Positions 4,079-18,876 of a DNA stretch of 64,000 bases are shown here, piece by piece. Every line of letters starts with the position of its first letter. The first letter of the stretch is position 1. The position numbers and the translations under genes are program-made. The stretch lies in the IMG/VR virus record IMGVR_UViG_3300049489_000201; one strand, written 5' to 3'. Source of the stretch: an uncultured virus (IMG/VR IMGVR_UViG_3300049489_000201). Its lineage: Duplodnaviria; Heunggongvirae; Uroviricota; Caudoviricetes. The notes under the pieces were generated by a model. That model was not told where the DNA came from and made no database searches. It saw only the letters and a program-made list of their open reading frames with translations.

Positions 4079-4735
4079 ATGTCAATGGCCCTGGCAATCA
4101 GACAGAACGGCGTCGTCTACATGGCGGTCGATTCTGTAGCCGCGTCAGCAGACACCACCGTGATTCGTAAAGAAACAAAGATGTTCTGGAACGGTGAGTA
4201 CCTCATCGCATTCGTGGGTAGTTTCAGGTACGGGCAGGCTGTAAAATTCTGCTCACTACCCACGTTTCCAGAAAATCTGCTCACGGAAAATCTGCCTGAA
4301 AATTCTGCCACCGGAAAATCTGCTTACGAAAATCTGCCACAGGAAAATCTGCTTGAGCGATGGTTCGTAACTGAGTGGATTCCCAATATCAAGTCAGCCA
4401 TGTGGGACGGCGGGGTGGACTCGGAAGACATTGACTGTTCTAGTATGCTCGTAGCCGTAGGTCCGTGGCTGTTGGTAGTAGAAGGATTCCAGGTCAGTAG
4501 TTACCAGCATAATCATGCAGCCCTAGGCGTAGCCGAGCAGGCTGGCCTGGTCGGCTTGGACGTATTATCCAGGGCGGGGATCAAGAAAATAGAAGACATA
4601 CTAGTATATACACTAGATAGTATAGAACAACATAGTATCTATGTTAAACGTCCTTGGTATGTAGCGAATACTGGACAGACACCAGAAGTTATACACAACA
4701 AAACAGAGTTATCCACAGGTTATCCACAGAATTAA
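4079..4735 (+). CDS. Ntn-hydrolase (HslV/proteasome-beta-like) protein
   Basis: N-terminal S-hydrophobic...VYMAVDS...KMF...YLIAFVGS pattern; leaderless promoter TCGATC-17-TATAAT-6-ATG. Confidence 0.6.
   Translation: MSMALAIRQNGVVYMAVDSVAASADTTVIRKETKMFWNGEYLIAFVGSFRYGQAVKFCSLPTFPENLLTENLPENSATGKSAYENLPQENLLERWFVTEWIPNIKSAMWDGGVDSEDIDCSSMLVAVGPWLLVVEGFQVSSYQHNHAALGVAEQAGLVGLDVLSRAGIKKIEDILVYTLDSIEQHSIYVKRPWYVANTGQTPEVIHNKTELSTGYPQN
4271..4352 (+). repeat. six tandem GAAAA(T)TCTGC copies inside the CDS
   Basis: starts at 4271, 4286, 4298, 4314, 4328, 4343. Confidence 0.9.
4689..4728 (+). promoter_or_regulatory. three co-oriented DnaA-box matches
   Basis: TTATACACA 4689, TTATCCACA 4709, TTATCCACA 4720; all fit TTWTNCACA. 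Confidence 0.55.
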
Positions 4736-5310
4736 CAAGATCACCACCGTGATATCTTGATCAGATGTAAAACATTCTAGACATGTGTGTTATTGGCGTA
4801 ATTAATATGCGGTCGTAAAGGCCCAAAAACACCGCAAATGAGGCTTAAAACGTCCAGAAACGCCGCATTCTAGGTTCTATATATGTAGAAACACCGGAAA
4901 AACGGCAGGCATAGCCCAGAACTGCCGCATTTGCGGACCAAACAAGGTCTACATACAGCATAGGGAGTGTTTTACCTATACTAGAACGTGTTTTCATGGT
5001 TCCTCCTCCCGCCCCGCAGGGGGCGGCGGGTCTTAAGAGACAGTACCTATACTAGTATACTCAGACACAAGTCTTGTTTGTATATACTAGGGGAAAACGA
5101 TAAGAATGATCTTGGTAACCTACGCATATAGGTACAATTCGGACATTATTCAGGGATAATTTATGGTCTTCGTAATCCCAGCGAATTCCAGCGATTTTCG
5201 TAATATAAATTCCAGCGATTTTTCGGAGATTTCGTAATGTCTTCGTAAATAGGGTGGGGTCGCGGGCCGGTCTTGGCCCGCAGGGCCCAGACCTGTCAAG
5301 ATCTAAAGGG

Positions 5311-5410
5311 TAGAAATTCGGCGGCGGGAGGATCACAACTCCAACGCTCTTGGTTATCAGACTTGGGTGACTCAGCAACACCCTTGAGCAGCCTGACCGC
5401 CGAACCCCTA
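5311..5410 (-). ncRNA. candidate structured RNA / 3' element
   Basis: closing stem TAGGGGTTCGGCGG/CCGCCGAATTTCTA with inner stems TCAGGCT/AGTCTGA, GGGTG/CACCC, GGAG/CTCC. Confidence 0.45.
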
Positions 5411-5418
5411 TTTAGTTG

Positions 5419-5562
5419 TTACTTGCGACCCACGATGACCGTGGTCACCGCAGCCGTCTGGTTGGTTGCACCCAGAAGCCGACCGGCCTCGTCGCGCACG
5501 ACGGCCTTGGTCACGGCACCCTTGCGGGTCTTCCAGTTCTCGGTACGGACGACAAGAGCCAT
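5419..5562 (-). CDS. small basic protein (47 aa)
   Basis: GAGGGAG RBS; MALVVRTENWKTRKG... Confidence 0.6.
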   Translation of the reverse strand: MALVVRTENWKTRKGAVTKAVVRDEAGRLLGATNQTAAVTTVIVGRK

Positions 5563-5564
5563 TG

Positions 5565-5750
5565 TTATTCTCCCTCTAGGATGGTGTTGAGGATACCGTC
5601 TGCGATATCCAGCGCTTCGTCTTCGTCTTCCTCCGTGGCGGTTCCCGCCAGGATTGCCTCAGCCAGTTCGCCGAGACGGTCTGGGTAACCCAGTTCCTCG
5701 CGGAACTCGGGCTTCACCCAATTTTCTGCTAGTGCCTCAATCGCTCTCAT
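5565..5750 (-). CDS. hypothetical acidic protein
   Basis: AAGG RBS; operon packing. Confidence 0.6.
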   Translation of the reverse strand: MRAIEALAENWVKPEFREELGYPDRLGELAEAILAGTATEEDEDEALDIADGILNTILEGE

Positions 5751-5759
5751 GGTTATACC

Positions 5760-6038
5760 TTACCAGTCATCGAACGGGCTGTCAAGACCTGTCACGTATC
5801 GATGTAGGCCAGAGAGGAACCTGATGTTGGCTGCGTCCTCTGGCTTCATTACGTGGTACCCGTTTGTCCACTCGATGTGATTGACGTTGGCGATTGCGAT
5901 GATGAGTCGCACCAGGTTGGACTTGACTGCTGGCGAAAACTCACACGTACCGGAGGCTACCTGGTAGACATTGATGTCAACTCTTCCGAGCGCATCACCC
6001 ATCTGCTTTACTAGCCGACCTTCGTTAGACTGAGCCAT
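5760..6038 (-). CDS. hypothetical protein
   Basis: AGGA RBS; operon packing. Confidence 0.6.
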   Translation of the reverse strand: MAQSNEGRLVKQMGDALGRVDINVYQVASGTCEFSPAVKSNLVRLIIAIANVNHIEWTNGYHVMKPEDAANIRFLSGLHRYVTGLDSPFDDW

Positions 6039-6050
6039 GGTTGGATCCTA

Positions 6051-6563
6051 TCAGAGTGGATCGGTCTGGTCAAGGATTTTAACGACCATTGAAGGTGGCT
6101 TCGGGCCAGGCGAACAGGAGCACCAGGAGATGTGCTTAGCGCACCGACGACACATTGAAAACCCGATTTTGGTACCTCGGTCATCTTCACCGTACATCGT
6201 CGCTGTCTGCCTAGTACGGACAGATGGCTTAACTGTATAGACCTTGGGAGTCTCAGCCAGTCCCGTCGCATCCTGCTTGCCGTATGCCTTGATCACGTCG
6301 GAAGGAATTCTCCCGCGCTCGCCGACCTTGATGCCGTTGTCAGCAGCCCACGAGCGGATCAAACTCGATTCACTTGTGGGCTTGCTAGGCTGGGAGGGCT
6401 TATCGCCCTCCGTCGCCACCTCCTTGACCGGCTTTACCGGCTCGTCAAAGATCTGCCCGGCTGCCTCAGCAGCAGCCAGAGCCTCGGTTGCTTCCTTGCT
6501 GAATCGGCCACGGCCTGGCTTAGCCAGTCCTAGACCGACGAGATAGTCTCGCTTCGTTGCCAT
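6051..6563 (-). CDS. Lsr2-like DNA-binding protein with C-terminal Cys cluster
   Basis: IRSWAADNGIKVGERGRIPSDVIKAY matches the Lsr2 DNA-binding domain; extra N-terminal GRGRFS; CxxC...CxC. Confidence 0.8.
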   Translation of the reverse strand: MATKRDYLVGLGLAKPGRGRFSKEATEALAAAEAAGQIFDEPVKPVKEVATEGDKPSQPSKPTSESSLIRSWAADNGIKVGERGRIPSDVIKAYGKQDATGLAETPKVYTVKPSVRTRQTATMYGEDDRGTKIGFSMCRRCAKHISWCSCSPGPKPPSMVVKILDQTDPL

Positions 6564-6572
6564 GTGGTCCCC

Positions 6573-6767
6573 TTACGCGCGCTTCGAAAGCGCCTCGATG
6601 GTCTCGTCCGACAGACGACCACGAGCGTTCACGGGAACGCCGACCTCACGCGCGAACGCACGAGCCTCGGCGGGGTTCTTGCGAAGGTAGTCCACGATAG
6701 CCGAATTCGGAGTGCGGCCACGGCCAGTGAGACCGGCGTACGCACGAACAGCCTTACGGTTGAGCAT
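6573..6767 (-). CDS. small tandem Lsr2-like (RGR AT-hook) protein
   Basis: VRAYAGLTGRGRTP and ARAFAREVGVPVNARGRLS; GGAGG RBS; promoter TAGACA-17-TAAGAT. Confidence 0.7.
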   Translation of the reverse strand: MLNRKAVRAYAGLTGRGRTPNSAIVDYLRKNPAEARAFAREVGVPVNARGRLSDETIEALSKRA

Positions 6768-6837
6768 GATCCCTCCAAGGGGTCGTTGTCTTTTCTTGGT
6801 TCTATCTTAGCCTATCGGCTGGTCCCTGTCTAGGGTT

Positions 6838-7005
6838 TTACGTGTAAAGTTCGTAGTAAAGCGAGACGAGCACGCGCACGTCAGGGATCAGGTCGATGAA
6901 AGCCTGACGAATCTCGTCGTCGTCCCATGCATCACCCGACTCGTCCCAATCGTCTAGCACGTCCTCGACGCTGCCGACGATGACTCGGAGTTCTGACTTG
7001 TCCAC
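6838..7005 (-). CDS. hypothetical acidic protein (55 aa)
   Basis: TAGTG coupling to upstream gene. Confidence 0.5.
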   Translation of the reverse strand: MDKSELRVIVGSVEDVLDDWDESGDAWDDDEIRQAFIDLIPDVRVLVSLYYELYT

Positions 7006-7256
7006 TACTTGTCCAGAGCCCGCTGGATGGTGTCGCCAGGCTCAAACTCGGGGTTCGCAGCCTTTAGCGCAGCCACAACGTCACGCAGAGCCTGAGGCTT
7101 GCGGTTGGACTTAGTGATCCCGTCAGCGCGGGCAGCCTTTAGCGCAGACACGCGAGACATCTTCATGCCAGGCACGTTAATCTCAAACGCGAGCGCGTGA
7201 GCCATGCTAAGCATCCGAAAATACTGGATGCCCTCGGGGGTGTCGATCACGGTCAT
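7005..7256 (-). CDS. hypothetical protein (start re-called at 7256)
   Basis: GAGGAGG RBS; own promoter TTGACC...TACAGT. Confidence 0.7.
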   Translation of the reverse strand: MTVIDTPEGIQYFRMLSMAHALAFEINVPGMKMSRVSALKAARADGITKSNRKPQALRDVVAALKAANPEFEPGDTIQRALDK

Positions 7257-7381
7257 TTGGTTCCTCCTCGTTGTGTAGTGCAACTGTAGCATCTGCACAC
7301 GTCGGGGTCAATGGAAAATCCAGGGAAATTTAGATTGATTCGTAACTTGACAGCCTGCGCGTAGCGCGGGCTACTGGCCCG

Positions 7382-7414
7382 CCAGGGGCGGTGAGTCAAG
7401 CCCACCGCCCCTGG
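7382..7414 (-). terminator. GC-rich hairpin after rIIB-like gene
   Basis: CCAGGGGCGGTG...CACCGCCCCTGG inverted repeat. Confidence 0.6.
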
Positions 7415-7436
7415 TTCCTACACCACTAGGAGGGAG

Positions 7437-8282
7437 TCAGTTTTCCCAGTACGAATCGTCCTGGTCGTCGTTCCAGTCGGAAGCAACGGCATCGGGATCA
7501 CCGTTCCAGACCACCGAAGCGGTCCACTCGGACTCGGTGACTGCCACGACCTCGTACTTGCAGCAGCGGATCTTGTGAGCATCGGAAGGAACCGACACCA
7601 CGTCCGCAGGGTCGATCTTCACGGTCAGAAGCACACCGCGAGCAAACGAGGATGCGTACTGGTGAGTACCAGCGTGCAGACCGAACGAACAGTGAGACTG
7701 CGGGTCGTCGTCCACCTTGTGACGAGGAACCTCCACCACGTCGCCCACGTTGTTACGCAGCGAACCGTGCTCCACGACCTCGCCATTGACGATGCCGTAG
7801 CCCTGGTGGATCGACACGTAGTCACCCTCGTCGGACGAGGTAACGCCCTTGTAGGCGATCAGGAAACCGTCGTTGTCGAGGTTCAGGCCGTGACGCTCAA
7901 TCCACGCGAACAGCGAGTTACGCGAACGGTAACCGGGGTTGTTGTGGAGACGAGCGGCGAAGTTGGCGAACGGGGTCACGTTGCCCTTTTCGGCCAGGAC
8001 AGCCGAGATAGCAGCCGACAGGTTGGCCGAAACCGGCTCGCCGTCGTAGGTGACCTGACCATCGGCGTAGCCGAAGCCAGCACCGACCTCGCTCAGCGCG
8101 TTCGCGTAGAGAGCGTCGAGGTTGAGGTAGGACTTGGCGCGAGCCTCGTCCCCTGCGCGGCAGGCGTTGAGCACCGCACCGAAGTTGGCGTGCGAGTCGT
8201 CCACGATGACCGGACGGCCATTCAGTACGACGGTGATCTGACGGTGAGCACCGTCATTGGTGTACGAGTAACGGAGAGACAT
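7437..8282 (-). CDS. rIIB-like protein
   Basis: DGFLIAYKGV, VDDDP..HCSFGLHAG, VKIDPADVVSVP...KIRCCKYEV; adjacent to rIIA-like. Confidence 0.85.
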   Translation of the reverse strand: MSLRYSYTNDGAHRQITVVLNGRPVIVDDSHANFGAVLNACRAGDEARAKSYLNLDALYANALSEVGAGFGYADGQVTYDGEPVSANLSAAISAVLAEKGNVTPFANFAARLHNNPGYRSRNSLFAWIERHGLNLDNDGFLIAYKGVTSSDEGDYVSIHQGYGIVNGEVVEHGSLRNNVGDVVEVPRHKVDDDPQSHCSFGLHAGTHQYASSFARGVLLTVKIDPADVVSVPSDAHKIRCCKYEVVAVTESEWTASVVWNGDPDAVASDWNDDQDDSYWEN

Positions 8283-10172
8283 TTACTTACCTTCCTTGTA
8301 GGTGTAGAGAGCGTTCACGTAGTCAGCGAGTGTCGCCGTCTTGCTGCTACCATTGTACCAGTATCCGGGCAGCAGCGGATAGGGCAAAAGCGCCTTCTCT
8401 ACGGCCTCGTTTGCCTTGCGCGTGCGATCCATCGACACGTTGACCGTCCACTCCAACGACCCGTCAACCTTCGTTGCGAGCAGGTCGGTCAGGGCGGGGT
8501 CGAGAAGCGAGTGCTTGCCGAGAGCCTGCAAGACAGTGTTGTCCTTGACAGCCCGAGCGAGGTACTGCTCGTCGGTACGAGCCTTGTCGGCGGCAGCCAG
8601 CCGATCCTTGATTTCTGCCCGGTCAACCGTGGCGTAGTCCTCGCGGAACGTGTCAAGGTCGCGCTTGTAGACCAGCACAGGCTTGACCTTGACTGCGATC
8701 ATCTGTCGCAGGTTGGGGTACGTTCCGTCCCGAAGTTCCTCGGGGGTGATGACGTAGAATTCCGCGTCAGGGTAATCGGACGCACGGTCGCCACCGTTGT
8801 AGACGTAGGCGTTGGCGTCGATCAGCAGCGTGGAACGCTGGGCGCGGTAGCGAGTGCCCGTGCCCGTGGTCATCTTCGGCAGGTCGCCCTTGTAGTCGTT
8901 CCAGTCGTGCCACTCGACCCACTCCGACGCCTCGCTCGACGCAAGGATGAAGTTGCGCTTGCCTGCGAAAGCGTGCGACGTGTCGTCGGACCACTGAGCA
9001 AGACCCTGCTTCACCCGCTTCGACACGGACGTGTAGGGGTAATTCTTGATGTAGACCACGGTGTCATCGGCACCCTTGCGCTGCCAGCGCGTGCCAGCCT
9101 TCGCGTTGTCGTACGGGTAGGCGTCACGGGTCCAGATCAGCGAACCGTTACCCACGATGTACGGCGGGACAGTCTCGGTGCCAAACTCCCACTTCACGTC
9201 GCGGAGGAACGAGAAGTGCTCGTTACGTCCACGCATGGCGAACGCCTCGGGCTTCGTCGTTGCCTTAGCCATGAAGGCGTCAATCTCGGCACGCACGCCG
9301 TCCTTGATTTCCACGACCTTGCGACGGAGGTAGTCGTTCGTCCGAACGTTGTAGAAAAGTTCCTCGCGGGAGGGAGCAAACGACACGTCACCGATGTTCG
9401 CCTTGATGATGAGCGGAGTGTTACGGAAGTCTGCGAGCAGGTCGCTGTCGCACTTGTAGGCGACGTTACCCATGAGCACAACGTGACCGTTGTACCCGCT
9501 ACCCGCGTACCAAACCTCCTGGCCGGGGATTTGGTGCAGACCGTCGAACGCCGACTGCGGAGCCTGACCGTTCACCAGCACCGACCCAGCAGGCCAGTAG
9601 GAGAAGATCGTCTCGGCCTCGGACTCAAAGTTCCAGATATCGGACGACTTGACGGGAATGGTGATCGTGGTCCCGTTGCGCTCCGACGTGGACACGGTGT
9701 CGATGATTTCGATTTCACCCACGCCCTCGGAGTTCTTCGCAACGAGAGCGATGGTGCGGATTCCGTTGTAGACGGACTCGATGGAAAACTGCGGCGAGTA
9801 GGTCAGGGCAGACTTGCAGCCGATGCCGAGCATTCCGACCTGATCGTTCGTCTCGCGCTTGTCTGAGCGGCCATAGAGCGAGTAGTGGTCAAGCACCTTG
9901 TCCGTGGACATACCCACGCCGAAGTCCTGAATGCGGAGGTTCGGATCGGTGTGCGACGGGAGGGTGACGAGCACGGGGTCGATGCACCCAGCCTCAATCG
10001 TCGCGTCGTAGCCGTTGGTGGCGTACTCACGGATGACAGCAGAAATCGGGTCCGTGTAGATGTTGGACAGCAGGCCCATGAGGTGCGCGGTCGCATCGGC
10101 GTCGATGGACATGGCGCGCGTCTCACCGCCGAGCGTGCTCCGCGCGGTCATCGTGTCGTTCAGAGGCTTCAT
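8283..10172 (-). CDS. rIIA-like protein with N-terminal GHKL ATPase domain
   Basis: IREYATNGYDA, DFGVGM, SDK...GMLGIGCKS, NGTTI, SREEL. Confidence 0.85.
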   Translation of the reverse strand: MKPLNDTMTARSTLGGETRAMSIDADATAHLMGLLSNIYTDPISAVIREYATNGYDATIEAGCIDPVLVTLPSHTDPNLRIQDFGVGMSTDKVLDHYSLYGRSDKRETNDQVGMLGIGCKSALTYSPQFSIESVYNGIRTIALVAKNSEGVGEIEIIDTVSTSERNGTTITIPVKSSDIWNFESEAETIFSYWPAGSVLVNGQAPQSAFDGLHQIPGQEVWYAGSGYNGHVVLMGNVAYKCDSDLLADFRNTPLIIKANIGDVSFAPSREELFYNVRTNDYLRRKVVEIKDGVRAEIDAFMAKATTKPEAFAMRGRNEHFSFLRDVKWEFGTETVPPYIVGNGSLIWTRDAYPYDNAKAGTRWQRKGADDTVVYIKNYPYTSVSKRVKQGLAQWSDDTSHAFAGKRNFILASSEASEWVEWHDWNDYKGDLPKMTTGTGTRYRAQRSTLLIDANAYVYNGGDRASDYPDAEFYVITPEELRDGTYPNLRQMIAVKVKPVLVYKRDLDTFREDYATVDRAEIKDRLAAADKARTDEQYLARAVKDNTVLQALGKHSLLDPALTDLLATKVDGSLEWTVNVSMDRTRKANEAVEKALLPYPLLPGYWYNGSSKTATLADYVNALYTYKEGK

Positions 10173-10375
10173 GTTTTCGTGCCCTTCGTTGTGGTGTAGG
10201 TCTAGAATACAGGCTACAAGGGGTCAGGTCAACGGTTTTCTGCCATAGATTTCAGGGGATTTTTCTGCCATTCGTAATTGACAGGATGGACCCTGCGGGC
10301 CATCGGCCCGCTCAGGGATTTCGTAATCGACTTCGTAACAGTCTGGTAACGGGCGGGCTAAGAACAGCCCGCATA

Positions 10376-10448
10376 TGGAGGCACTATCGGGAGTCGAACC
10401 CGAAACTATGGTTTTGCAGACCATATTCGCATACCCTGTCATAGCGCC
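10376..10448 (-). tRNA. tRNA-Cys(GCA), encoded CCA, weak D-arm
   Basis: acceptor GGCGCTA/TAGTGCC; anticodon arm ATGGT-CTGCAAA-ACCAT; TTCGA T-loop. Confidence 0.85.
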
Positions 10449-10449
10449 A

Positions 10450-10523
10450 TGGTAGGAGCACGGGGAATCGAACCCCGGAATGCTGGTTAAGAGCCAGCGG
10501 TTATGCCACTTTACTATACTCCC
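10450..10523 (-). tRNA. tRNA-Lys(CTT), encoded CCA
   Basis: GCTGG-CTCTTAA-CCAGC anticodon arm; GGTTCGATTCC. Confidence 0.9.
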
Positions 10524-10535
10524 ATGAATTTTGCG

Positions 10536-10608
10536 CTCCACCAGCAGGATTCGAACCTGCATCTTACACCTTAACAGGGTGCCGTCTTGCCAGTTAGACG
10601 ATGGGGGA
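10536..10608 (-). tRNA. tRNA-Asn(GTT), no encoded CCA
   Basis: GCACC-CTGTTAA-GGTGT; canonical D and T arms. Confidence 0.9.
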
Positions 10609-10649
10609 TTAACGGGATTGGTGTAGAGTGGTCTCATAACCAATCCCCG

Positions 10650-10722
10650 CGCGACCTACGGGAGTTGAACCCGCTCCATACACCTTGACGGGGTGATATC
10701 TTATCCGTTTGACCTAGATCGC
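10650..10722 (-). tRNA. tRNA-Asp(GTC), C at position 33
   Basis: acceptor GCGATCT/AGGTCGC; CACC-CCGTCAA-GGTG; GGTTCAACTCC. Confidence 0.85.
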
Positions 10723-10831
10723 ATGATGCCAGTTTTGCTTGCGGAAGATCTGGCAACTCCACTAGTTACAAATATACTTCAACAAGCCACCGCTCGTCGC
10801 TGCTTTCGCTCACGAACACAGTTGGGTGGAG

Positions 10832-10905
10832 TGACATGGACGGGAATCGAACCCGCGACGCCTTGATTGAAAGTCAAGGTTGCAACGACCAACGTACACC
10901 ATGCC
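10832..10905 (-). tRNA. tRNA-Glu(TTC)
   Basis: acceptor GGCATGG/CCATGTC; CTTGA-CTTTCAA-TCAAG; GGTTCGATTCC. Confidence 0.8.
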
Positions 10906-10910
10906 TTGCG

Positions 10911-10982
10911 TCTCGGTGGAGGGATTCGAACCCATCAGAGTAGTGGTTTACAGCCACGCTCCCACAGCCTACGGTCACCGAA
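10911..10982 (-). tRNA. atypical tRNA-Tyr(GTA)
   Basis: GTGG-CTGTAAA-CCAC; TTCGAAT T-loop; lacks long variable arm. Confidence 0.65.
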
Positions 10983-11031
10983 TTGTTCTGCCTTGGGCGG
11001 GGAGATTATCACCCACCCCGGCAGAGTCTCA

Positions 11032-11061
11032 AGTATACTTGATTCAGTCGTGTCCTGTCAA
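11032..11061 (-). promoter_or_regulatory. housekeeping-sigma promoter of tRNA cluster
   Basis: TTGACA-18-TATACT. Confidence 0.75.
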
Positions 11062-11091
11062 GTCCTAGAGGTATGCACCAGTCGGGATTGC

Positions 11092-11580
11092 CTAGGCTGG
11101 GCGACTCAAAGTCCCGCCCATTTGGCCGCTTGTTCGCGAGCCCTGCTCGGTTGCGTGTTCACTGTGCGACAACGCCCAGCGAACCAATGGAGCGACGAGC
11201 AAATCCAACTCTTCCTGGCGCGTGGTTGCTTCTGCGGCACGGCGGGCGGCAGCCTGGAGATCCACGGTGGCGTCTTGAGAAGTCAGTCCGTTGCTCATCT
11301 GGTCGGTCATGTTGGCGAGGCCCTGGGCGGTGAGGTCAGCAACTTGCGCGTCCAACTTGTCAAGGAAGTCCGGGTCGAACAGAACGCCCAGCAGGTGCTG
11401 CAACTCGGTCACAGCCTTGGAGAAACCCGTGACGAATGCCTCAGCGGCAGCCTCGTGCGCCTCGTCGTTGTAACGACCGTTATCCGAGAGATCCCAGTGG
11501 GTCGTCTTGAGAGCGTTGGCGCGCTCGACCATCGCGTGCTCGATCCCGACCAGGATTGACTGCGTTGCTACCTGTGACAT
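11092..11580 (-). CDS. hypothetical helical protein
   Basis: AAGGAGG RBS; promoter TTGACG-17-TAGAGT. Confidence 0.7.
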   Translation of the reverse strand: MSQVATQSILVGIEHAMVERANALKTTHWDLSDNGRYNDEAHEAAAEAFVTGFSKAVTELQHLLGVLFDPDFLDKLDAQVADLTAQGLANMTDQMSNGLTSQDATVDLQAAARRAAEATTRQEELDLLVAPLVRWALSHSEHATEQGSRTSGQMGGTLSRPA

Positions 11581-11728
11581 TTCGTTCCTCCTTGTTGGTG
11601 TAGTGCTACTCTATCTGATCCCGCTCGCTACGTCAACGGTTTTTCCGGGCAAATTTAGGTTCGTTCGTAACTTGACACGCGCGCTAGCGCGGGCCAAAAC
11701 CGGCCCGCGCCTTTCGGCGCGGCTGGCT

Positions 11729-11851
11729 TTATGCCAGAACCACCAGATAAAATGCCAGGGCAAATGCACCAAATATGCTAACGCACTTGATCGTTTCACT
11801 TTCGGTATACCAGGCAAGGGCAAGAAGGATGGGAATTGCCAGCCAAAGCAT
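11729..11851 (-). CDS. 40-aa membrane micro-protein
   Basis: TAATG coupling; two hydrophobic stretches. Confidence 0.5.
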   Translation of the reverse strand: MLWLAIPILLALAWYTESETIKCVSIFGAFALAFYLVVLA

Positions 11852-12603
11852 TAGCGCCCCTTTACAGCGAAACGAATGTTAGCCTTACCGTCGATGCAAA
11901 GACCGCACGAGAAACACGCGCCGCCCTCAGTGGTGATTAGCGGAATACGGCCCATTACCTCAGGGCACGCCGCGCCAGGACGATTAGTCCCGGTCATTTC
12001 CTTAACGGCCTCGCCAGCCTCAGCGGCAGTATCGGCAAGGTACGCAATCAGCAGCGACGGGTATTCCACGCGGGCAATTTCCGCCCAGCGACGGTTATCC
12101 TCGTCAACCGAAAGGTAAAGCGTGAGATTGGGAATGTCCGCGAGAATGTCCACGACATTAGCGCCGGGGATAAACGAACGGGTGTATGCCCAAAAGCGCA
12201 CGTCAGGGTTACGGCGCACAACGTCGGCCCACGCTGCGGCATAGGTGCGCGAGAAAAAGTCGCCGTCGTGGTGAATGCGGAAAACCGGCTCCGCATTACG
12301 CTTGACGCAAGCGGCACGGAATTCCCCAATGAGCGCGTTAAGCGACTCGACCAATTCACCGTAGGTCGCACCCTTGACGGCATTCCAATTGCTTTCCATC
12401 ACCGCGCGGAATCCCTTAAACAGATTCTCCAACTTGCCAGCGTAGCAAACGCGCTCGCAAACGCTAGTCTGGCCGGGGCAGGAATAGGCAGCGCCCGACA
12501 GAATGCCGAAAGCGTTGGAGATATTGGCGACCTTGCCATTGGCAGATGCGGACGGCGTAGTCTTACGGTCGGTGGAGAGGCGCAGGCCCAGGCGGTTGCT
12601 CAT
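11851..12603 (-). CDS. GP88-like (radical-SAM-related Fe-S) protein
   Basis: CPG...CxxxCYA, FRIHHDGDFF, FWAYTR, C-terminal CP...CxxCxxC; leaderless promoter TTGACC-17-TAATCT-6-ATG. Confidence 0.75.
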   Translation of the reverse strand: MSNRLGLRLSTDRKTTPSASANGKVANISNAFGILSGAAYSCPGQTSVCERVCYAGKLENLFKGFRAVMESNWNAVKGATYGELVESLNALIGEFRAACVKRNAEPVFRIHHDGDFFSRTYAAAWADVVRRNPDVRFWAYTRSFIPGANVVDILADIPNLTLYLSVDEDNRRWAEIARVEYPSLLIAYLADTAAEAGEAVKEMTGTNRPGAACPEVMGRIPLITTEGGACFSCGLCIDGKANIRFAVKGR

Positions 12604-12712
12604 AGGTCTAGATTAGCCTACCGTGGTCGCAGGGTCAAGGGTTTTCCGGGGAAATTTTGATCTATCGTAAGACTAGACCTTGCCCGCTTCGCGGGCTAAG
12701 GTCTTGGCCCGC

Positions 12713-12913
12713 TCAGTCGCTAATGTCACCATTGCGACGAGCGTAGGCCAACGCCTCGGCGTTTTCCCACTCAGTGGACTCGGCAGGGTAGTCGCCGGGC
12801 GGATACGGCTCATGCTTGGCGCAGTAGTTCACACCATTAAGGGCGTAGACAGACTCACTCTCGCAGTATGTGTAGTGACCCTTTTCGGGAGTCACGTAGT
12901 CACACTTAGGCAT
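12713..12913 (-). CDS. small Cys/His protein
   Basis: GGAGG RBS; C...C...CxxH. Confidence 0.6.
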   Translation of the reverse strand: MPKCDYVTPEKGHYTYCESESVYALNGVNYCAKHEPYPPGDYPAESTEWENAEALAYARRNGDISD

Positions 12914-13214
12914 TTTTTGCCTCCACTCGATTCCAGGATGAGTCCAGCACGCCGTCAACGGCAAGGGCAAATTGCCCAGAGTCGATCTTGATGTGCCCAA
13001 ACCGCTTATCGCTTACCTTGAGCCATGCGTAGGGCTGACGCAGGATTGCGATAGCCGTTGCGATTCCTACCGCCGTGTCGTCTGCTCCATCAGAAATGAA
13101 TGAGTCTAGTTGCGACTCCATCATTTCTAGCAGACTAGGGCCAGCAAACTTTCCCCGCTCGGCCATGTATTCCGGACCTTCGAACGCGCGGCTAGTCACT
13201 GTTCTGCCAGCCAC
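12906..13214 (-). CDS. hypothetical protein (start uncertain)
   Basis: ORF in minus-strand operon. Confidence 0.55.
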   Translation of the reverse strand: MAGRTVTSRAFEGPEYMAERGKFAGPSLLEMMESQLDSFISDGADDTAVGIATAIAILRQPYAWLKVSDKRFGHIKIDSGQFALAVDGVLDSSWNRVEAKNA

Positions 13215-13336
13215 TCGTAGAAGCCAACCTCAGATTCGATGCGCTCAAGCGGGGTCTGTGCGCCGAAGCGATTGACCCATAGGCGAAGCATCTGCTCAGT
13301 CGTCGGCTTGTAGCCAGGAGCGGCGGGTGAAGCCAT
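13196..13336 (-). CDS. hypothetical 46-aa protein
   Basis: TAATG coupling; GGGGGAG upstream. Confidence 0.5.
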   Translation of the reverse strand: MASPAAPGYKPTTEQMLRLWVNRFGAQTPLERIESEVGFYEWLAEQ

Positions 13337-13482
13337 TACTCCCCCCATCCCTTCGCAACGTGCTTCGGCTTGCGTCGGTAGTCCTTGACCGACTTGTGCT
13401 TGGTCGTTGCGTTGCTGCGGCGGGTGTCCTCGACACGACGCTGGTGCTCGGCGGTACGGCGGTGGTTGATGTGGTTGCTCAT
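13336..13482 (-). CDS. basic 48-aa protein
   Basis: RRSNATTKHKSVKDYRRKPKH; ATGA coupling. Confidence 0.55.
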   Translation of the reverse strand: MSNHINHRRTAEHQRRVEDTRRSNATTKHKSVKDYRRKPKHVAKGWGE

Positions 13483-13637
13483 GTTCCCGATCCTACCAGA
13501 AGTGAGAGTTTGTCGTCAAGCATGTGGATACAACGATTTACGCCGACTCGGGCGTCATCGGCCTTGTTGAGCCTGTCTCGCTCTGCTGCCATTTCGGCGC
13601 GGAGGTCGAGCAGCAGGTCTACGACCTCAGTAGTCAT
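13479..13637 (-). CDS. small coiled-coil protein
   Basis: MTTEVVDLLLDLRAEM...; packed between neighbours. Confidence 0.5.
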   Translation of the reverse strand: MTTEVVDLLLDLRAEMAAERDRLNKADDARVGVNRCIHMLDDKLSLLVGSGT

Positions 13638-13833
13638 CTTCGCCACCAAAGTAGCCGTAGTCCTCATCCGTGCCCCAGCCGACCGAAGCCATGCTAGAGT
13701 CGTGCTCATAGCCAAAGTCGATGACGGGCTCGTCATCATAGAGGCCGAGGCAGTAGTCACACTCACCGTCGTCATCGAGGTAGTCCTGACGGCAGACGGT
13801 GCAGAGGTCGGGTGCGTACTCTTCTGTGCTCAT
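13627..13833 (-). CDS. acidic Zn-finger micro-protein
   Basis: CxxC...CxxC plus SMASVGWGTDEDYG; leaderless promoter TTGACG-17-CATGAT-6-ATG. Confidence 0.65.
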   Translation of the reverse strand: MSTEEYAPDLCTVCRQDYLDDDGECDYCLGLYDDEPVIDFGYEHDSSMASVGWGTDEDYGYFGGEDDY

Positions 13834-13942
13834 AGGTCAATCATGTCAGTCAGACTGCCTCACGTCAAGTGATTTCTGGGGAAATATTTAGTGTGTCGTA
13901 ACCAAGAACTTATGCGGAACGCGGGCTAAGTTCTTGGCCCGC

Positions 13943-14121
13943 TGCCAGACCGGAGTGGTTACCGGTTTAGGCTTTTCGCTTGGCGGATCAAGCCAGCGTG
14001 CGGGGCTATCGCTCTACGTATCCAGGCCGTGCCTTGGCCTAGCGTTCTGACGACACCGTTTGTTCATAGGAACGGTGCTACTCCTCTACCCGGTTTCGGT
14101 AAGACTCTGCCGGGAAGTCTG
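13943..14121 (-). ncRNA. candidate multi-hairpin/pseudoknot RNA
   Basis: AGACT/AGTCT crossed with CCCGG/CCGGG, then hairpins CACCGTT/AACGGTG, AGGCC/GGCCT, ACCGG/CCGGT. Confidence 0.45.
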
Positions 14122-14280
14122 TTAAATGGTCACCACAAGAATCGCCATGATAGCGAGCGCGATGGTTGCCTGGAAAGCAACCGCGACTGTGGCGGGCTTG
14201 CGCGGTCGGCCAACCATATACCAATTGACCGGAAGTGAGAACAGGAACCAGGCCACTAGAACCCACTGCTGCCATACCAT
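14122..14280 (-). CDS. 52-aa two-TM membrane protein
   Basis: MVWQQWVLVAWFLFSLP...; TGATG coupling. Confidence 0.6.
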   Translation of the reverse strand: MVWQQWVLVAWFLFSLPVNWYMVGRPRKPATVAVAFQATIALAIMAILVVTI

Positions 14281-14582
14281 CACTTGCCGCCCTTTCGCGC
14301 AGCACGAGCAGCCTGACCCCGACGACGCTGAGCCGTGGGCGACGACTTGCCCACCTGGTCCTCGCGCGTGTCCGTCTCGACCTTGTGCGCGTACACCGTC
14401 ACGATGCGCTTGGACGCGGGGTCCACGATCACCGCGAGCCCATCACGGATGTGCCGACGCTGGCCAGGGTAGTAGCCATTGTCGTACGAAACGTGCGGGT
14501 AGTCCGCAGCCGCAAGGACCGAGTTGACATCGAAGCCCTTCTCGTCGATCTGCTTGCGGGCGTGGGCGGAAATGGTGAACAT
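14280..14582 (-). CDS. DUF4258/RelE-colicin E5-like (BECR-fold) ribonuclease-like protein
   Basis: SAHARKQIDEKGF...GQRRHIRDGLAVIVD...RIVTVY pattern; AGGAG RBS. Confidence 0.55.
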   Translation of the reverse strand: MFTISAHARKQIDEKGFDVNSVLAAADYPHVSYDNGYYPGQRRHIRDGLAVIVDPASKRIVTVYAHKVETDTREDQVGKSSPTAQRRRGQAARAARKGGK

Positions 14583-14602
14583 GAATTCTCCTAAGTAGGT
14601 TG

Positions 14603-14757
14603 GAACAGAGGATCACGGCAAGGCTAGCATTCGGCTTAGGCACGAGTCAAGGGGGTTGTGATCATCAATCTCGTAGTCCACCCTAGAAGTGCTTTCTTGA
14701 TCCTGAGGCGATTAACTCTCGTCGGCTTAGGACTAGCCTTGCTGTCATCCTCTGTTC
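14603..14757 (-). ncRNA. long hairpin RNA/leader with symmetric internal bubble
   Basis: GAACAGAGGAT/ATCCTCTGTTC and GCAAGGCTAG/CTAGCCTTGC stems; CCTAAGCCGA on both loop strands. Confidence 0.6.
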
Positions 14758-14888
14758 TCTTGTAGTCATAGACTAGCAGACACCACTGACAGGCGTCTAG
14801 GGGTTTTCCGGGGAAATTTCGACTAATCGTAACCCTTGTAGACCTTAGCCCAGCGGGCTAAGGTCTTGGCCCGCCTCGGCGGGCTCTG

Positions 14889-14984
14889 TCAAGCAAACCA
14901 CAAAAGGTATGCGACAGCAGCGAAACACAGCCAGAACGGCAGCGAGAACAGGAACGCCCACGCCATGCCCTTACAAGTCAGCAC
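14889..14984 (-). CDS. 31-aa hydrophobic peptide
   Basis: GGAGG RBS; AWAFLFSLPFW. Confidence 0.45.
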   Translation of the reverse strand: MLTCKGMAWAFLFSLPFWLCFAAVAYLLWFA

Positions 14985-15109
14985 GACTTCCTCCACTCTC
15001 GATTTTCACGACGACGACCGAGCCGACGCTCCTGACGTGACGAAAGCCCGTCGTGGCAGCATCCCCACGCGCACTTTCCCTTAGTGACGTGACGCGACTT
15101 CCTGAGCAT
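14978..15109 (-). CDS. basic Cys-containing 43-aa protein
   Basis: CAWGCC followed by Arg-rich tail. Confidence 0.5.
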   Translation of the reverse strand: MLRKSRHVTKGKCAWGCCHDGLSSRQERRLGRRRENREWRKSC

Positions 15110-15164
15110 CAGAGCCCCATTTCCCAGATGAGATAAAGCATGACAGCGATGAGCGCGGCGGTGA

Positions 15165-15398
15165 TCACGAGCGCTCCGACTGAGCCTTGCCGCCGAAAAC
15201 GCCGTCGAGAATGACGCGCGTTCCCTCAGCGTTGTACCAAACGCCCTGACGCTCGCAGGCCGACTTGACCTCACGCGGGCACTCGGCGCACCAGGACTTT
15301 GCCCGCTCGATCTTCGCGGGCATTCCCGACATGCGGATCTTGTCGATCTCCACAATCGTGAGGCCGGTCGCGGCGGGGGAGCAAGGAACCTGGAACAT
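15165..15398 (-). CDS. divergent WhiB-like protein
   Basis: C...AKSWCAECP...C...GVFGG; GAAAGG RBS. Confidence 0.65.
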   Translation of the reverse strand: MFQVPCSPAATGLTIVEIDKIRMSGMPAKIERAKSWCAECPREVKSACERQGVWYNAEGTRVILDGVFGGKAQSERS

Positions 15399-15441
15399 GT
15401 CGTGCCTTTCGTTTGTTGGTAGGGCTAGTCTAGCAGAAGGG

Positions 15442-15648
15442 TCAGACAATGGGGGTGATCTTAGCCTGACGCAGACCGTTCTCCCAGGTGTACCACACGC
15501 CGCGCGGGACGTTGATGCGGCCACGGTAGCCGTCGAAGACATATGCCTCGGTGTAGATACCGATCATGTGGACACCGTGCGACGACACGGGCTCAAGCAC
15601 GCACGCGGAGCAGCGGCAGGAGGGGGAGGGAGAGAGGATCTTACGCAT
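15442..15648 (-). CDS. hypothetical protein
   Basis: GAAAGG RBS; own promoter; CxCxxC. Confidence 0.55.
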   Translation of the reverse strand: MRKILSPSPSCRCSACVLEPVSSHGVHMIGIYTEAYVFDGYRGRINVPRGVWYTWENGLRQAKITPIV

Positions 15649-15834
15649 TTTCTTGCCTTTCGTTTTCGTTACCCTCAGTCTAGCAGGGGGGTCTGACAGT
15701 CGAGCCCTAGAAACGGACATATCACCTAGTCACAAGTGACTATCTTTTCGGGGGATTTTTTAGTCAGTCTTAACCATAGACATTCGCCCGCAGGCGGGCT
15801 AAGGTCTTGGCCCGCAGGGCCGAAGCCCTTGCGG

Positions 15835-16119
15835 TTACTCCTCCCACATTCCATCGAGGTGAATGTCCTCACGACCCTCGTTCGCGTAGTCGTAGTTGTC
15901 GCACTCGATGCCGGGGTGCGGCTCTTCGCCGCAGTCGGCGCAGTAGTCGTCGTCATCGAAGTCGAAGTCGGCGTCGCAGTCGCCGTTCGCGTGGTCACAG
16001 AGCGCGTGCTCGTTACCAGGACGCGAGGTGTCAAACGCACCAGGCTCGTCATACCACTCGCGCGAGCAGGGGGCAGCAGGGGTGTGGCCGCAGCAGGGGT
16101 AGTCTTCGCAGTAGGACAT
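15835..16119 (-). CDS. Cys/His/Asp-rich acidic protein
   Basis: CEDYPCCGH motif; GAAAGG RBS; own promoter. Confidence 0.7.
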   Translation of the reverse strand: MSYCEDYPCCGHTPAAPCSREWYDEPGAFDTSRPGNEHALCDHANGDCDADFDFDDDDYCADCGEEPHPGIECDNYDYANEGREDIHLDGMWEE

Positions 16120-16278
16120 TTTCGAGCCTTTCGGTTGGTGTTAGCACCAGCCTATCACACGGGTCTGACATTCAGGGGGAATTCCAGGGGTTCGCGACCT
16201 GATCGTAACACTTGATTTTGCCCGCTGCGCGGGCTAAGATCATGGCCCGCGACGGGTTCTCATACAACCCATCGCAGA

Positions 16279-16434
16279 CTACTTGACAGCGACGTATTTT
16301 TCGCCATTCCAGACCGAACGACGGTCACGGCCAGAACGGAACAGACGGAATCGAAGGTCGAGGCCGCAACGCGGGCAGAAATCAGCCAGCACGGACACAA
16401 GGTGGATTTTGCCACAGTCGCAGCGGAAGAACAT
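16279..16434 (-). CDS. Zn-ribbon micro-protein (51 aa)
   Basis: CDCG...CPRCG; TAATG coupling. Confidence 0.55.
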   Translation of the reverse strand: MFFRCDCGKIHLVSVLADFCPRCGLDLRFRLFRSGRDRRSVWNGEKYVAVK

Positions 16435-16676
16435 TACCACACCATCCAGAGGTTAGGAACGTCGCCCTTACGAATGTTCCACTGGTAATCACCCAGGAAG
16501 GAATCGAGGGCAGCACCCACGAGAACCTCGTCGGGAATGCGCGAGTGGTGCGAGTGCGGATAATCGAATTCCGCAACCTTCGGAGGCATGTGAAAGCCAC
16601 CAGACACCATCTGCTCAACGTCGAAGATAGCGACGTGGCGAGTGCCCTTACCAGAAATAGTGACCCAGAGATTCAC
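16434..16676 (-). CDS. hypothetical protein
   Basis: GGAGG RBS; GTGA overlap. Confidence 0.6.
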   Translation of the reverse strand: MNLWVTISGKGTRHVAIFDVEQMVSGGFHMPPKVAEFDYPHSHHSRIPDEVLVGAALDSFLGDYQWNIRKGDVPNLWMVW

Positions 16677-16894
16677 AGGACACCTCCACCAAAGTCTGCG
16701 ATGGGACGACGGACAAGAACGGTTGAGAATGCGTTGTAGACGCGAGCAACGTTGCGACCGTCCGAAGTCTTACCGGACAGAGTGACCTCGCTACCCGCGC
16801 GGCGGGTGGAGTGGATCTTGACGGCGTGGATACCCATGATGACGGTCTCGCCCACGCGAACGCGACCGCTGCTCTCAATCTCGATCTTTGTCAT
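16673..16894 (-). CDS. small beta-rich protein
   Basis: leaderless start 6 nt after TAGCCT. Confidence 0.6.
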   Translation of the reverse strand: MTKIEIESSGRVRVGETVIMGIHAVKIHSTRRAGSEVTLSGKTSDGRNVARVYNAFSTVLVRRPIADFGGGVL

Positions 16895-17072
16895 GCCTTA
16901 AGGCTATCAGAGGGGTCTGACAGTCGCATCTTGAGAATAGGGTGAAATTGGACATTCTGGACTAGTCAGTTGTGACTATCTTTTCCGGCGTTTTTTAGCC
17001 CTATCGTACTATGGACAGCGCCCGCCAGGCGGGCCAAGATCTTGGCCCGCGCGCCCCCGAAGGGGCGAGCGT

Positions 17073-17240
17073 TTAGTTCTCGCGCATGTCGGCCAGGGCA
17101 ACGTCGATTGCCGCGAGCACGCGCGCCTCGGGCGCGAATCCGCCGTCACACACGAAGTCGGCAACCTCGACCGCGAGGTACAGCGGGAGGCCGCAGGACA
17201 CGCCAAGGTCGGCGGCGGTGGTGGGGGAAAGGCTGGTCAT
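17073..17240 (-). CDS. hypothetical protein (start re-called at 17240)
   Basis: AGGAGG RBS; own promoter. Confidence 0.6.
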   Translation of the reverse strand: MTSLSPTTAADLGVSCGLPLYLAVEVADFVCDGGFAPEARVLAAIDVALADMREN

Positions 17241-17373
17241 GGTGTCCTCCTGATTGGGTGTAGCCCAAGCGTAGCAGATGGGTACGACAGTGGCAACTAG
17301 ATTCCGGGGAAATATTCGCTTATCGTAACCTTGCATGTGGCAGGCAGGCGGGGGAAGATCTTAGCCCGCGCCC

Positions 17374-17577
17374 TCAGGCGAGGATACGGATGTGTGACCA
17401 GGTAGGGTCGTCGGACTCCCACTCTTCCAGGTCAGACAGATCAGCGCTGGGCGTGAGGCGCAGGAGGCGCAACTCCTCACTGATCCATGCGTGGCGAGCG
17501 GCCTCAGTGGTGAAGCCGAACGACTGGCGGAAACGACCGAAGTCGTCCTCTGTCTCAAAGAACACATAGAAGATCAT
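17374..17577 (-). CDS. hypothetical protein
   Basis: TTGACA-17-TAGCGT-6-ATG leaderless. Confidence 0.6.
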   Translation of the reverse strand: MIFYVFFETEDDFGRFRQSFGFTTEAARHAWISEELRLLRLTPSADLSDLEEWESDDPTWSHIRILA

Positions 17578-17671
17578 GGCTATACGCTACTCCCATATTC
17601 AGGGTATGTCAAGGGTCGTACGTAACAGGATGATAACAAAGGGCGGGCCAAAGAACTTAGCCCGCAGGCCA

Positions 17672-17779
17672 CTAGGAAGCAACAAACCTACGGAACGCAC
17701 TGGTGATACGTCCAATTGTCGACATGTGCATGTACCAATCTAGGTACATGAGAGCCTGCTTACGCTCACGGCGTGTCAT
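17672..17779 (-). CDS. 35-aa micro-ORF
   Basis: ATGA coupling. Confidence 0.4.
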   Translation of the reverse strand: MTRRERKQALMYLDWYMHMSTIGRITSAFRRFVAS

Positions 17780-17919
17780 GCGCTTGCCTTAGCGATAGCC
17801 TCACGCTTGGTAGCGTAGGCATCGATCACCACACCGTTACGCACCACGAGCCAAAGCCCGATGAGCATAGCAGGGTAGGTGTGTGCGTTGGCACGGGTGA
17901 CCTTGACAACCTTAGGCAT
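17776..17919 (-). CDS. 47-aa micro-ORF
   Basis: TGATG coupling; W.VVRNG.VID...TKREA. Confidence 0.5.
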   Translation of the reverse strand: MPKVVKVTRANAHTYPAMLIGLWLVVRNGVVIDAYATKREAIAKASA

Positions 17920-18107
17920 CAGAGCCACACCGCCAGCATGTCATCCTGACCGAACGACTGCGACTCACCGTTGGTGTAGGTGACTGCCACAAGGGCGAAT
18001 GCCTCATTGTGGCGCACATGCTGCACCGTACGAGTGACGAAGCGGCGGGGGTCAGAGATGCCCATGCCCGCTACGAGGGCCGTTGCCTTGATACTGTTGA
18101 GACTCAC
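17919..18107 (-). CDS. hypothetical protein
   Basis: GAAGG RBS; own promoter. Confidence 0.55.
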   Translation of the reverse strand: MSLNSIKATALVAGMGISDPRRFVTRTVQHVRHNEAFALVAVTYTNGESQSFGQDDMLAVWL

Positions 18108-18375
18108 TGTCTTGCCTTCCCTTTGTTGTTACCCTTAGCGTAGCATGAGGGTCTGACAGTAGGAAGCCGAATCAAGGATCTATCGAGGTTCGTGACCAAA
18201 ACGTTACCTAATCTATGGGCGCACTAATCAGACAGGCGTACGTTCGCTTGCATAGTGGTATCGTACATTTCAGAAAATTAATCAAAATCAACATTCATCA
18301 AAATTGAGTGGAACGCGGTTCCAATTTTGCACATAACAAAAATTAGTAAAAATACGGTCTGCTAGAATATGTACG

Positions 18376-18597
18376 CTATGCGGACACGAACCCTGACGAT
18401 ATCAAAGCAGCGTCTGTCAGCGCGGCAACCATTCCCCACATCATCAGCGTTACCAGCACCATATACGGCGTAAGCACCCAGCGTTCGAACGAATCAACTA
18501 TATATCTGTTGGTTATCCACATCATACGAATAGTCTTGGCGACATATACGGTGGTAACTGATACAACAATAAGCGCCGCCAGGGCTAGCAATATCAT
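18376..18597 (-). CDS. membrane protein
   Basis: two hydrophobic helices. Confidence 0.55.
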   Translation of the reverse strand: MILLALAALIVVSVTTVYVAKTIRMMWITNRYIVDSFERWVLTPYMVLVTLMMWGMVAALTDAALISSGFVSA

Positions 18598-18770: not shown

Positions 18771-18876
18771 CTCAATACCTTTCTTATCGCTGTAGCGAGC
18801 AATGGCACCAGCGTGTCATTCCATAACGCTAGTTTGAACATACGTGCTTCATATATAAGTGTTTGTATGTGTTCGT

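Follow-up and report, generated by a model that had tools for sequence, protein, structure and literature searches.

The window analysed here is the full 64,000-nt stretch of the uncultured virus record IMGVR_UViG_3300049489_000201, to which all coordinates refer; in its early region a GC-rich palindrome, GCGGGCY-N3-9-RGCCCGC, recurs between units of leftward genes. Conserved spacing in related records favours placing this palindrome at the midpoint of two sigma-A promoter-like sites that mirror each other. We favour, at a probability of roughly 60%, a reading in which each junction would act as an insulator-promoter module that is read by the host RNA polymerase and doubles as a homology joint.

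Sequence and geometry of the junction element

Twelve exact intergenic copies of the palindrome were found in the window, with a 13th (17348) carrying two mismatches. The 13 intergenic copies counted in an earlier note on this DNA (hereafter the original prediction) stand when the 3-9-nt spacer is allowed, but its literal one-N, 15-nt pattern gave no matches. A looser pattern, GCGGG-N6-12-CCCGC, gave 13 matches in the window against 0.44 expected by chance, 12 of them within 5262-17369 and one inside rtcB at 22262. The predicted order of palindrome, TTACGA and tract was borne out, with TTACGA lying 13-20 nt past the palindrome in 10 of the 13 and differing by one base in the remaining three, and the AATTTCCCCGGAAAA tract (A/T-CCCCGG type) recognizable at no more than four mismatches in 10 of 13. 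The element had been described as unseen outside 5.2-17.7 kb; the other copies do lie inside, but a possible degenerate palindrome, which lacks TTACGA, is found at 19719-19741, directly upstream of the gene starting at 19694. In a few copies a GTTAC-N6-GTTAC repeat can be seen by eye, which we take to resemble an MtrA/GlnR motif. An Rfam search of the window returned tRNAs only, the exact 22-bp palindrome had no matches in viral contigs, and blastn of 12.0-18.2 kb against cultured phages gave no match.

For the geometry, junctions were anchored solely on CGGG..CCCG plus TTACGA, giving 45 junctions in six related records including the window (window 13, G003 13, G001 12, L021 5, L015 1, and L034 1). 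Of 48 candidates, three were left out, namely a near-duplicate (L035) and two that are tRNA arms; one anchor was shifted by 4 nt. A looser palindrome scan returned 21 stretches, namely nine from G001/G003, three new true loci (L021, L034, and L035) and nine without a junction; rIIB searches returned three, from which one close locus (L015) was added. A -35-like hexamer was present 11-13 nt outside CGGG on the reverse side of 31 junctions and on the forward side of 25, against a background of 0.8% per position, and 42 of the 45 carry one on at least one side. Within the window, 7 of 13 copies pass the reverse-side test, in addition to TAGACC at 12674. At a spacer of 16-18 bp, A-11 and T-7 were seen in 23 of the 31 reverse halves and 14 of the 25 forward halves. 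With hexamers 11-13 nt from CGGG, the palindrome centre (YAAGRT) falls at the -10 position; TAAGGT and TAAGAT are also the -10 boxes of ordinary promoters of the same phage (5757 and 6804). In L034 the mirror is near perfect, reading TTGACA-N17-CAAGATCTTA-N17-TGTCAA.

Both hexamers are present in 14 copies (17 expected by chance) and are identical in 3 of these 14, which rules out pairing of TTGACA with TGTCAA as a single RNA stem; the hexamers therefore appear to act singly. The original prediction also placed a third half-site at most junctions. This did not hold, an exact third copy of GCGGGC being present at just 4 of 13, and what was taken for a half-site is the hairpin within the spacer of the reverse promoter-like half. 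Hairpins reaching -8 kcal/mol were found on the downstream side of 29 of 45 copies, compared with 12.8 (maximum 18) after shuffling, and on the upstream side of 26, compared with 11.6, their sequence varying among copies.

Strong hairpins in most copies would also suit a tandem, U-less terminator and nothing else, in which the mirrored words are relics of an old inverted promoter duplication and shuffling is incidental to the repeats. Many -10 boxes are indeed poor, and short repeats attract deletions anyway. Relics should decay, however, whereas the 11-13-nt distance and the TTG are kept in six records of at most ~70% identity with the spacer sequence left free, and we regard this explanation as improbable.

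Beyond the palindrome, TTACGA lies 31-34 nt before the -35 box of the gene promoter in 13 of 23 promoters, a spacing that places the A/T tracts near -52 and -42. UP elements lie around -52 and -42.

Gene units and features of the array

Nineteen sense promoters were counted by hand in the array, 13 of sigma-A type and seven of a second type with one overlapping; 11 come after a palindrome and eight do not. A promoter comes after 11 of the 13 junctions, in seven cases of sigma-A form, and copies 5262 and 10353 have none of their own. The predicted unit of one to about six micro-genes with a promoter is therefore not uniform, since 8 of 19 promoters lack a palindrome and larger genes, rIIA/rIIB (629 and 281 aa) and GP88 (250 aa), are carried alongside the micro-genes. 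The cargo further includes two Lsr2-like genes, weak WhiB-like and DUF4258 matches, and five tRNAs; most early genes of the window have no assigned family. Gene starts have ordinary ribosome-binding sites or are leaderless. The original prediction overlooked the mirrored -35 hexamers, the PafBC-type promoter class, and the probable long-terminal-repeat nature of the region, all of which are treated below or above. The features are as follows, with the strand where one was assigned.

4689-4728, plus strand: three DnaA-box-like 9-mers (TTATACACA once, TTATCCACA twice), left border.
4750-19200: early region, probably a long direct terminal repeat; both limits are estimates.
5151-5250, minus strand: tandem TTACGA/tract repeats, left border, with no promoter downstream.
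5262-5281: palindrome copy 1, the last junction; forward TTGACA 13 nt before CGGG.
5419-7256, minus strand: seven small genes, including two Lsr2-like (6051-6563 and 6573-6767).
5757-5785, 6045-6073, 6804-6832, and 7283-7311, minus strand: promoters of the seven-gene unit.
7366-7382: palindrome copy 2, after a long hairpin; plus-strand TTGACA 14 nt from CGGG.
7437-10172, minus strand: unit of rIIA-like (8283-10172) and rIIB-like (7437-8282) genes; promoter 10204-10232.
10278-10372: tandem palindromes (10295-10311 and 10353-10372) with no gene between; plus-strand TTGACA 10278-10283.
10376-11061, minus strand: tRNA cluster (Cys, Lys, Asn, a tRNA at 10650-10722, and Glu) with its own promoter, 11032-11061.
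11092-11636, minus strand: 162-aa orphan gene with promoter 11608-11636; replaced in G001, skipped in sequencing run X5.
11672-11708: palindrome 11689-11708; plus-strand TTGACA 11672-11677, poor -10.
11851-12638, minus strand: GP88-family gene, 250 aa (11851-12603), with promoter 12610-12638.
12674-12712, plus strand: palindrome 12691-12712 with reverse promoter-like half TAGACC-N17-TAAGGT (12674-12702).
13921-13942: palindrome with an 11-bp alternative stem downstream and no -35 on either side; gene promoter 13840-13868.
14583-14766, minus strand: conserved long hairpin in the RNA, z -4.2, preceding the DUF4258 gene (14280-14582).
14836-14874: palindrome 14853-14874; reverse TTGTAG-N17-TAAGGT, forward TTGACA; dual promoter 14770-14799.
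15165-15398, minus strand: weak WhiB-like match, a small gene in the 14770-18158 block.
15777-15815, plus strand: palindrome 15794-15815 with reverse half TAGACA-N17-TAAGGT (15777-15805).
16212-16250: palindrome 16229-16250; reverse TTGATT-N17-TAAGAT, forward TTGTAT-N17-CATGAT.
17012-17050: palindrome 17029-17050; reverse half TGGACA-N17-CAAGAT.
17331-17369: palindrome 17348-17369, two mismatches; reverse half TTGCAT-N17-GAAGAT.
17643-17665: palindrome copy 13; forward TTGCTT-N17-TAAGTT; gene promoter 17584-17612.

At the left border, G002 has a similar pair of DnaA-box-like 9-mers on the opposite strand and G001 has none there; phage T5 has such boxes near its injection stop. Runs resembling 5151-5250 are present at the left genome ends of Yaboi and Mildred21. 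Short GAAAATCTGC repeats lie at 4271-4356 within a 218-aa open reading frame (ORF), with like words at the left ends of Streptomyces BE phages and in G001. In the slot 10295-10372, G001 has a 105-aa ORF nearby, and run X5 skips 10283-10313 together with the tRNA-Lys gene.

Six GP88 homologues keep the motifs CPGxTxxCxxxCY, RxHxxGD, and a C-terminal CPE..ACxxC, which we take to suggest an iron-sulfur, radical-SAM-like enzyme. None of 138 candidates placed GP88 in genome contigs, and a protein-cluster atlas search with GP88 returned GP88 clusters only. The RNA hairpin at 14583-14766, between promoter and DUF4258 gene, keeps its stem in G001 with changed pairs and diverges in run X5; it has no Rfam match and may be a structured leader or a small RNA. 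A second inverted repeat, TAGTCAC..TGACTAG, with an ATGTCC box is found at two junctions (15726-15745 and 16962-16980), at the same two junctions in G001, and once, degenerate, in L021; GGACAT boxes are frequent in BE junctions. Elsewhere in the window, positions 1-1340 hold small plus-strand ORFs of 67-72% GC, against 49% for the genome, and were probably acquired recently from a host or phage of high GC, and 43021-46467 encodes a 1148-aa Ser/Thr/Ala/Asp-rich repeat protein amid virion genes.

A second, PafBC-type promoter class

Seven minus-strand promoters of 22 bp each, at 14770, 15427, 15677, 16149, 16901, 17268, and 18137, have the form TGTCnn-N10-TAnnnT, with TGTC at -28 to -25 and the -10 box exactly 12 nt on. 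Six are strict matches (0.23 expected by chance), all on the minus strand, and one is looser; all stand ahead of small genes. The 12-nt spacing was found at 6-7 sites each in the window, G001, G002, G003, and G006 (six in G006, seven in the others), with 0-2 at other spacings, and at 5-7 sites each in the cultured phages Mildred21, NootNoot, Tribute, and Coruscant, compared with one each in Karimac and Yaboi. These sites resemble PafBC-dependent promoters in sequence and spacing, the reported consensus being tGTCgg(N10)tA(N3)T (PMC8635444, in part), and differ in lying on a phage. The Mycobacterium smegmatis PafBC motif is reported not to be conserved in Streptomyces venezuelae (PMC9380542, in part). 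We put the odds that these seven promoters use host PafBC at about even. A phage-encoded WYL activator was sought in five records and none was found (7 of 14 controls positive). No published account of PafBC-type phage promoters was found among the literature listings searched and the papers cited here.

Phage affiliation and the probable terminal repeat

The capsid protein of the window shares 62-64% identity with its counterparts in Streptomyces BE/BK phages, a grouping that supports the predicted actinophage identity and points to an actinobacterial host. The stretch at 6-18 kb has a GC content of 0.56-0.61, compared with 0.47-0.51 beyond. Terminal repeats of BE phages are 10.7-11.5 kb long and contain lsr2 (PMC5764925); they are GC-rich (PMC8612146, in part). 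The phages belong to the Stanwilliamsviridae, and their repeats have been likened to T5 and SPO1. The window block is similarly GC-rich and holds Lsr2-like genes among its leftward small genes. GP88 is carried by roughly 100 BE records, and a GP88 homologue occurs twice in each of 10 Streptomyces BE records, among the matches listed, which places it in the terminal repeat. For two contigs of the probable source run, depths were 28.9 and 19.5, a ratio of 1.48; a collapsed twofold repeat over ~4.8 to 18.3 or 19.2 kb predicts 1.45-1.47, a weak but consistent match, although the depths fix no ends. Taken from sequence and depth, the early region is probably the long terminal repeat of a BE-like siphophage.

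Like BE long direct terminal repeats (PMC5764925 and, in part, PMC8612146), which are GC-rich, 10-12 kb, with leftward small genes, lsr2, and GP88, the block is bordered by HNH and thyX, has TTACGA runs at its ends, and shows a hairpin, GC box, and promoter at most junctions. In the window, by comparison, the box is extended to a 17-23-bp palindrome with mirrored -35 boxes, TTACGA and tract accompany each junction, and the block also encloses rIIA/rIIB and tRNAs. Intergenic repeats are unmentioned in PMC5764925 and in passages of PMC8612146, PMC7650747, and bioRxiv 2024.02.16.580700, and the same literature search found no published account of repeats in BE terminal repeats.

Relatives keep the scaffold and homogenize the copies

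G001 is a complete 115-kb relative, colinear with the window at ~70-75% nucleotide identity, in which the module is limited to 52.4-64.4 kb, scattered single matches aside. Ten of 33 window genes have no match in G001, and two that do match (16673-16894 and 15442-15648) have changed slot; in G006, genes 17374-17577 and 16434-16676 are placed in different slots, and the divergence is greater still in G002 and G003. Orthologous junctions share 0.65 identity, compared with 0.61-0.64 for paralogous ones. CGGG is followed by C in all 13 copies of the window but by G in 11 of the 12 copies of G001, and two paralogous G001 junctions share 48 identical nt, two others 32. Orthologues barely closer than paralogues, a lineage-specific base, and long shared stretches together indicate concerted evolution: junction copies are homogenized within each genome. 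Sequencing run X5 is ~93% alike (an estimate) and keeps gene order; joints, taken from contigs and with few of the inserted letters seen, lie at 12712 (the palindrome edge), 11030-11641, 13520-13605, and elsewhere. Runs X2 and X4 gave short pieces only. Shuffling within the clade of the window is modest.

Junctions of BE phages combine a hairpin of UUCG type with a promoter and a GC palindrome whose sequence is specific to the lineage, and Karimacvirus terminal repeats contain 15-18 such boxes. The box is spelled GCGGGC in the window, GCGGGG in G001, GCCGCCCCGGC in Karimacvirus, and GGCGCCCGGCGCC in Coruscant; judging from its position (e.g. ahead of GP88), CGGG core, and a nearby AAGATCTT, the BE box would be homologous to the window element. 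That each lineage spells the box its own way also suits an explanation in which GC box and TTACGA are operators: a DNA-binding protein made by the phage would use them to time early promoters or turn them off, with site and protein co-evolving. The occurrence of the BE box in both orientations and the doubling of TTACGA at 10-11-bp steps in several copies fit such operators. The inner palindrome, 12 to 21 nt long across the 45 copies, is unlike a rigid dimer site. The original prediction had allowed for a phage factor binding the element, and among 142 of the 158 G001 ORFs of at least 75 aa no candidate was found, the sole named regulators being a MerR-type helix-turn-helix protein and a WhiB, with no cluster-A-type repressor, WYL protein, or sigma factor seen. 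An operator role, which would be compatible with the module favoured here, is unlikely. A cluster A stoperator system was rejected, none of five records matching the SWU1 repressor in a search that had no positive control.

Gene gain and loss in cultured BE phages

Karimac and Birchlyn (97% identical) differ by a 2.1-kb, three-gene deletion that runs box to box, the ends sharing TGACCGGGGCGG with a 12-bp overlap, and gene indels of 390 and 294 bp likewise end in the box with 12-14-bp overlaps. Indels were then surveyed in all pairs within 11 Karimacvirus-group and six Samistivirus-group records (Coruscant excluded). Across these 17 cultured phages, 140 clean indels fell into 26 clusters, of which 11 have overlaps of 12-72 bp in junction repeats, six of them in the box and five in the -10/leader repeat. 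When clusters were merged by slot (by eye), ~6-7 of 18-19 events end in repeated junction DNA. Sequence within 15 nt of a box makes up 3.8% of the whole repeat; an intergenic-only null would be less extreme. In L045, L046, and L007 the BE box centre is mostly CCC and is GGG in 3-4 boxes per genome, a micro-inversion within the palindrome.

Resolution of BE deletions within 12-14 bp of identity at the box, together with the CCC/GGG flips of its centre, could be taken to mean that the 10-2-10 palindrome is an att- or res-like crossover site of a dedicated recombinase. No tyrosine integrase was found in G001, G002, G003, G006, or Yaboi (14 of 14 controls positive), nor any resolvase match in G001, and crossovers are not at a single fixed point, falling in the -10/leader repeat as well as in the box. 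We hold such a site-specific system to be very improbable. Crossovers in the most-alike repeat and the lack of an integrase argue for shuffling by homology plus selection for intact units, and the element is a homology hot spot rather than a site-specific cassette system. An attC-like strand bias was also ruled out, as mismatch types are mixed (CA 10, GT 7, GG 7, CC 6, AC 4).

Proposed mechanism

Each junction would combine a terminator or insulator with a promoter, the whole being read by host RNA polymerase. In order of transcription, a GC-rich hairpin would close the preceding unit; the palindrome would be where two sigma-A-like sites facing each other overlap, each strand reading TTGACA-N12-CGGG(S)-YAAGRT with a hairpin in the spacer, and polymerase may bind these sites weakly, block read-through, or give a short antisense RNA. 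TTACGA and two phased A/T tracts would then serve as upstream activating DNA, and a sigma-A or PafBC-type promoter would drive the following unit. Repetition of the module would allow homologous or micro-homologous crossovers between copies, by which genes would be deleted, inserted, or swapped. With promoter and terminator left complete after a crossover, products would be viable and copies homogenized. The route may be phage RecA, RuvC, and Endo VII (G001 encodes all three and a Cas4-like nuclease) or slippage. A more tentative version treats the palindrome as a two-headed decoy promoter that parks polymerase or fires an antisense shut-off into the unit before it, with PafBC, the ssDNA alarm of the host, switching the first units on and the same DNA serving as the gene-swap joint. 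We consider this possible but rather doubtful; if true, it would insulate units and drain polymerase from the host.

Several observations weigh against the insulator-promoter module. A U tail follows the palindrome in 1 of 45 copies, so termination would not be of the classic type; with a terminator scan giving 13 hits against 11.6 by chance, a classic U-tail terminator is ruled out. The lack of U tails and the fixed -35 geometry do uphold the prediction that the element is more than a terminator. Where the -35 box is perfect the -10 box is often poor, and since the shorter box of G002, G004, and BE phages shows no clear mirroring, mirroring is not required family-wide. As for exchange, separate junctions of the window share exact stretches of at most 22 nt, window and G001 junctions map 12:12, and 21 of the 23 window genes with a G001 match are in the same order; the freely rearranging plug-in array of the original prediction therefore fails in the closest complete relative. 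No palindrome-to-palindrome joint was seen in runs X1 and X5 among 15 of 29 joints listed. In the cultured BE phages, 15 of 26 indel clusters are not junction to junction (13 touch no box at either end, and two do so at a single end). The predicted role as a recombination joint, with breakpoints inside the element, is upheld in part, by the BE indels that end in the equivalent box and, indirectly, by homogenization here, but over half of the BE indels lie elsewhere.

Comparison with known systems

The closest description is that of promoter-early stem-loop (PeSL) cassettes in the T4-type phages RB49 and phi1 (PMC2839356, in part, as throughout this comparison), and the likeness drawn by the original prediction is supported by the anatomy. 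Both have a repeated intergenic module of stop codon, A/T-rich upstream DNA, and -35/-10 promoter, a GC-rich stem-loop that is often within the spacer, an orphan-gene region, and indels bounded by the module, here seen in cultured BE relatives. In the window these features appear as the promoters and tracts counted above (11 and 10 of 13 copies, respectively), spacer hairpins, and a variable orphan-gene region. Unlike the ~50 PeSL modules spread genome-wide in a T4-type phage, the 13 copies here lie in one terminal block of an unrelated actinobacterial siphophage; a mirrored promoter-like pair precedes a separate gene promoter, a second, PafBC-type class is present, and the -10 box is TAnnnT, not the Escherichia coli sigma-70 consensus of T4-type PeSL. 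PeSL cassettes are further characterized by excised mini-circles and by measured terminator and promoter activity.

Bidirectional promoters with a shared -10 (PMC12825309, in part) similarly have opposed polymerase sites around overlapping -10 boxes. The predicted start gap in the window is ~15 bp, compared with the common 18, 10, and 23, and the window sites have -35 boxes and spacer hairpins in both halves and stand between co-directional genes. As with ESAS of cluster K mycobacteriophages (PMC3203893, in part), the copies are imperfect inverted repeats that precede non-structural genes in an actinophage, with a spacer that varies and a consensus particular to each genome; ESAS have another sequence and, with a 13-bp SAS, adjoin translation starts, whereas the window element lies 60-150 bp further upstream, before the promoter.

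Shuffling driven by PeSL was documented by one paper in the literature search. The BE phages supply nucleotide-exact cases (Karimac/Birchlyn, Karimac/TomSawyer, and Karimac/Yaboi), in which one can directly test how early genes, presumably for host takeover, come and go together with the DNA that controls them. As gene gain and loss fall exactly at a matching signal in cultured Streptomyces phages, a device described in T4-type phages becomes testable in a second, unrelated phage family. The enrichment of TGTC-N12-TAnnnT in four cultured BE phages likewise makes phage borrowing of PafBC testable in a laboratory host, and the mirrored geometry proposes a means by which dense early operons may be insulated or timed without a phage regulator.

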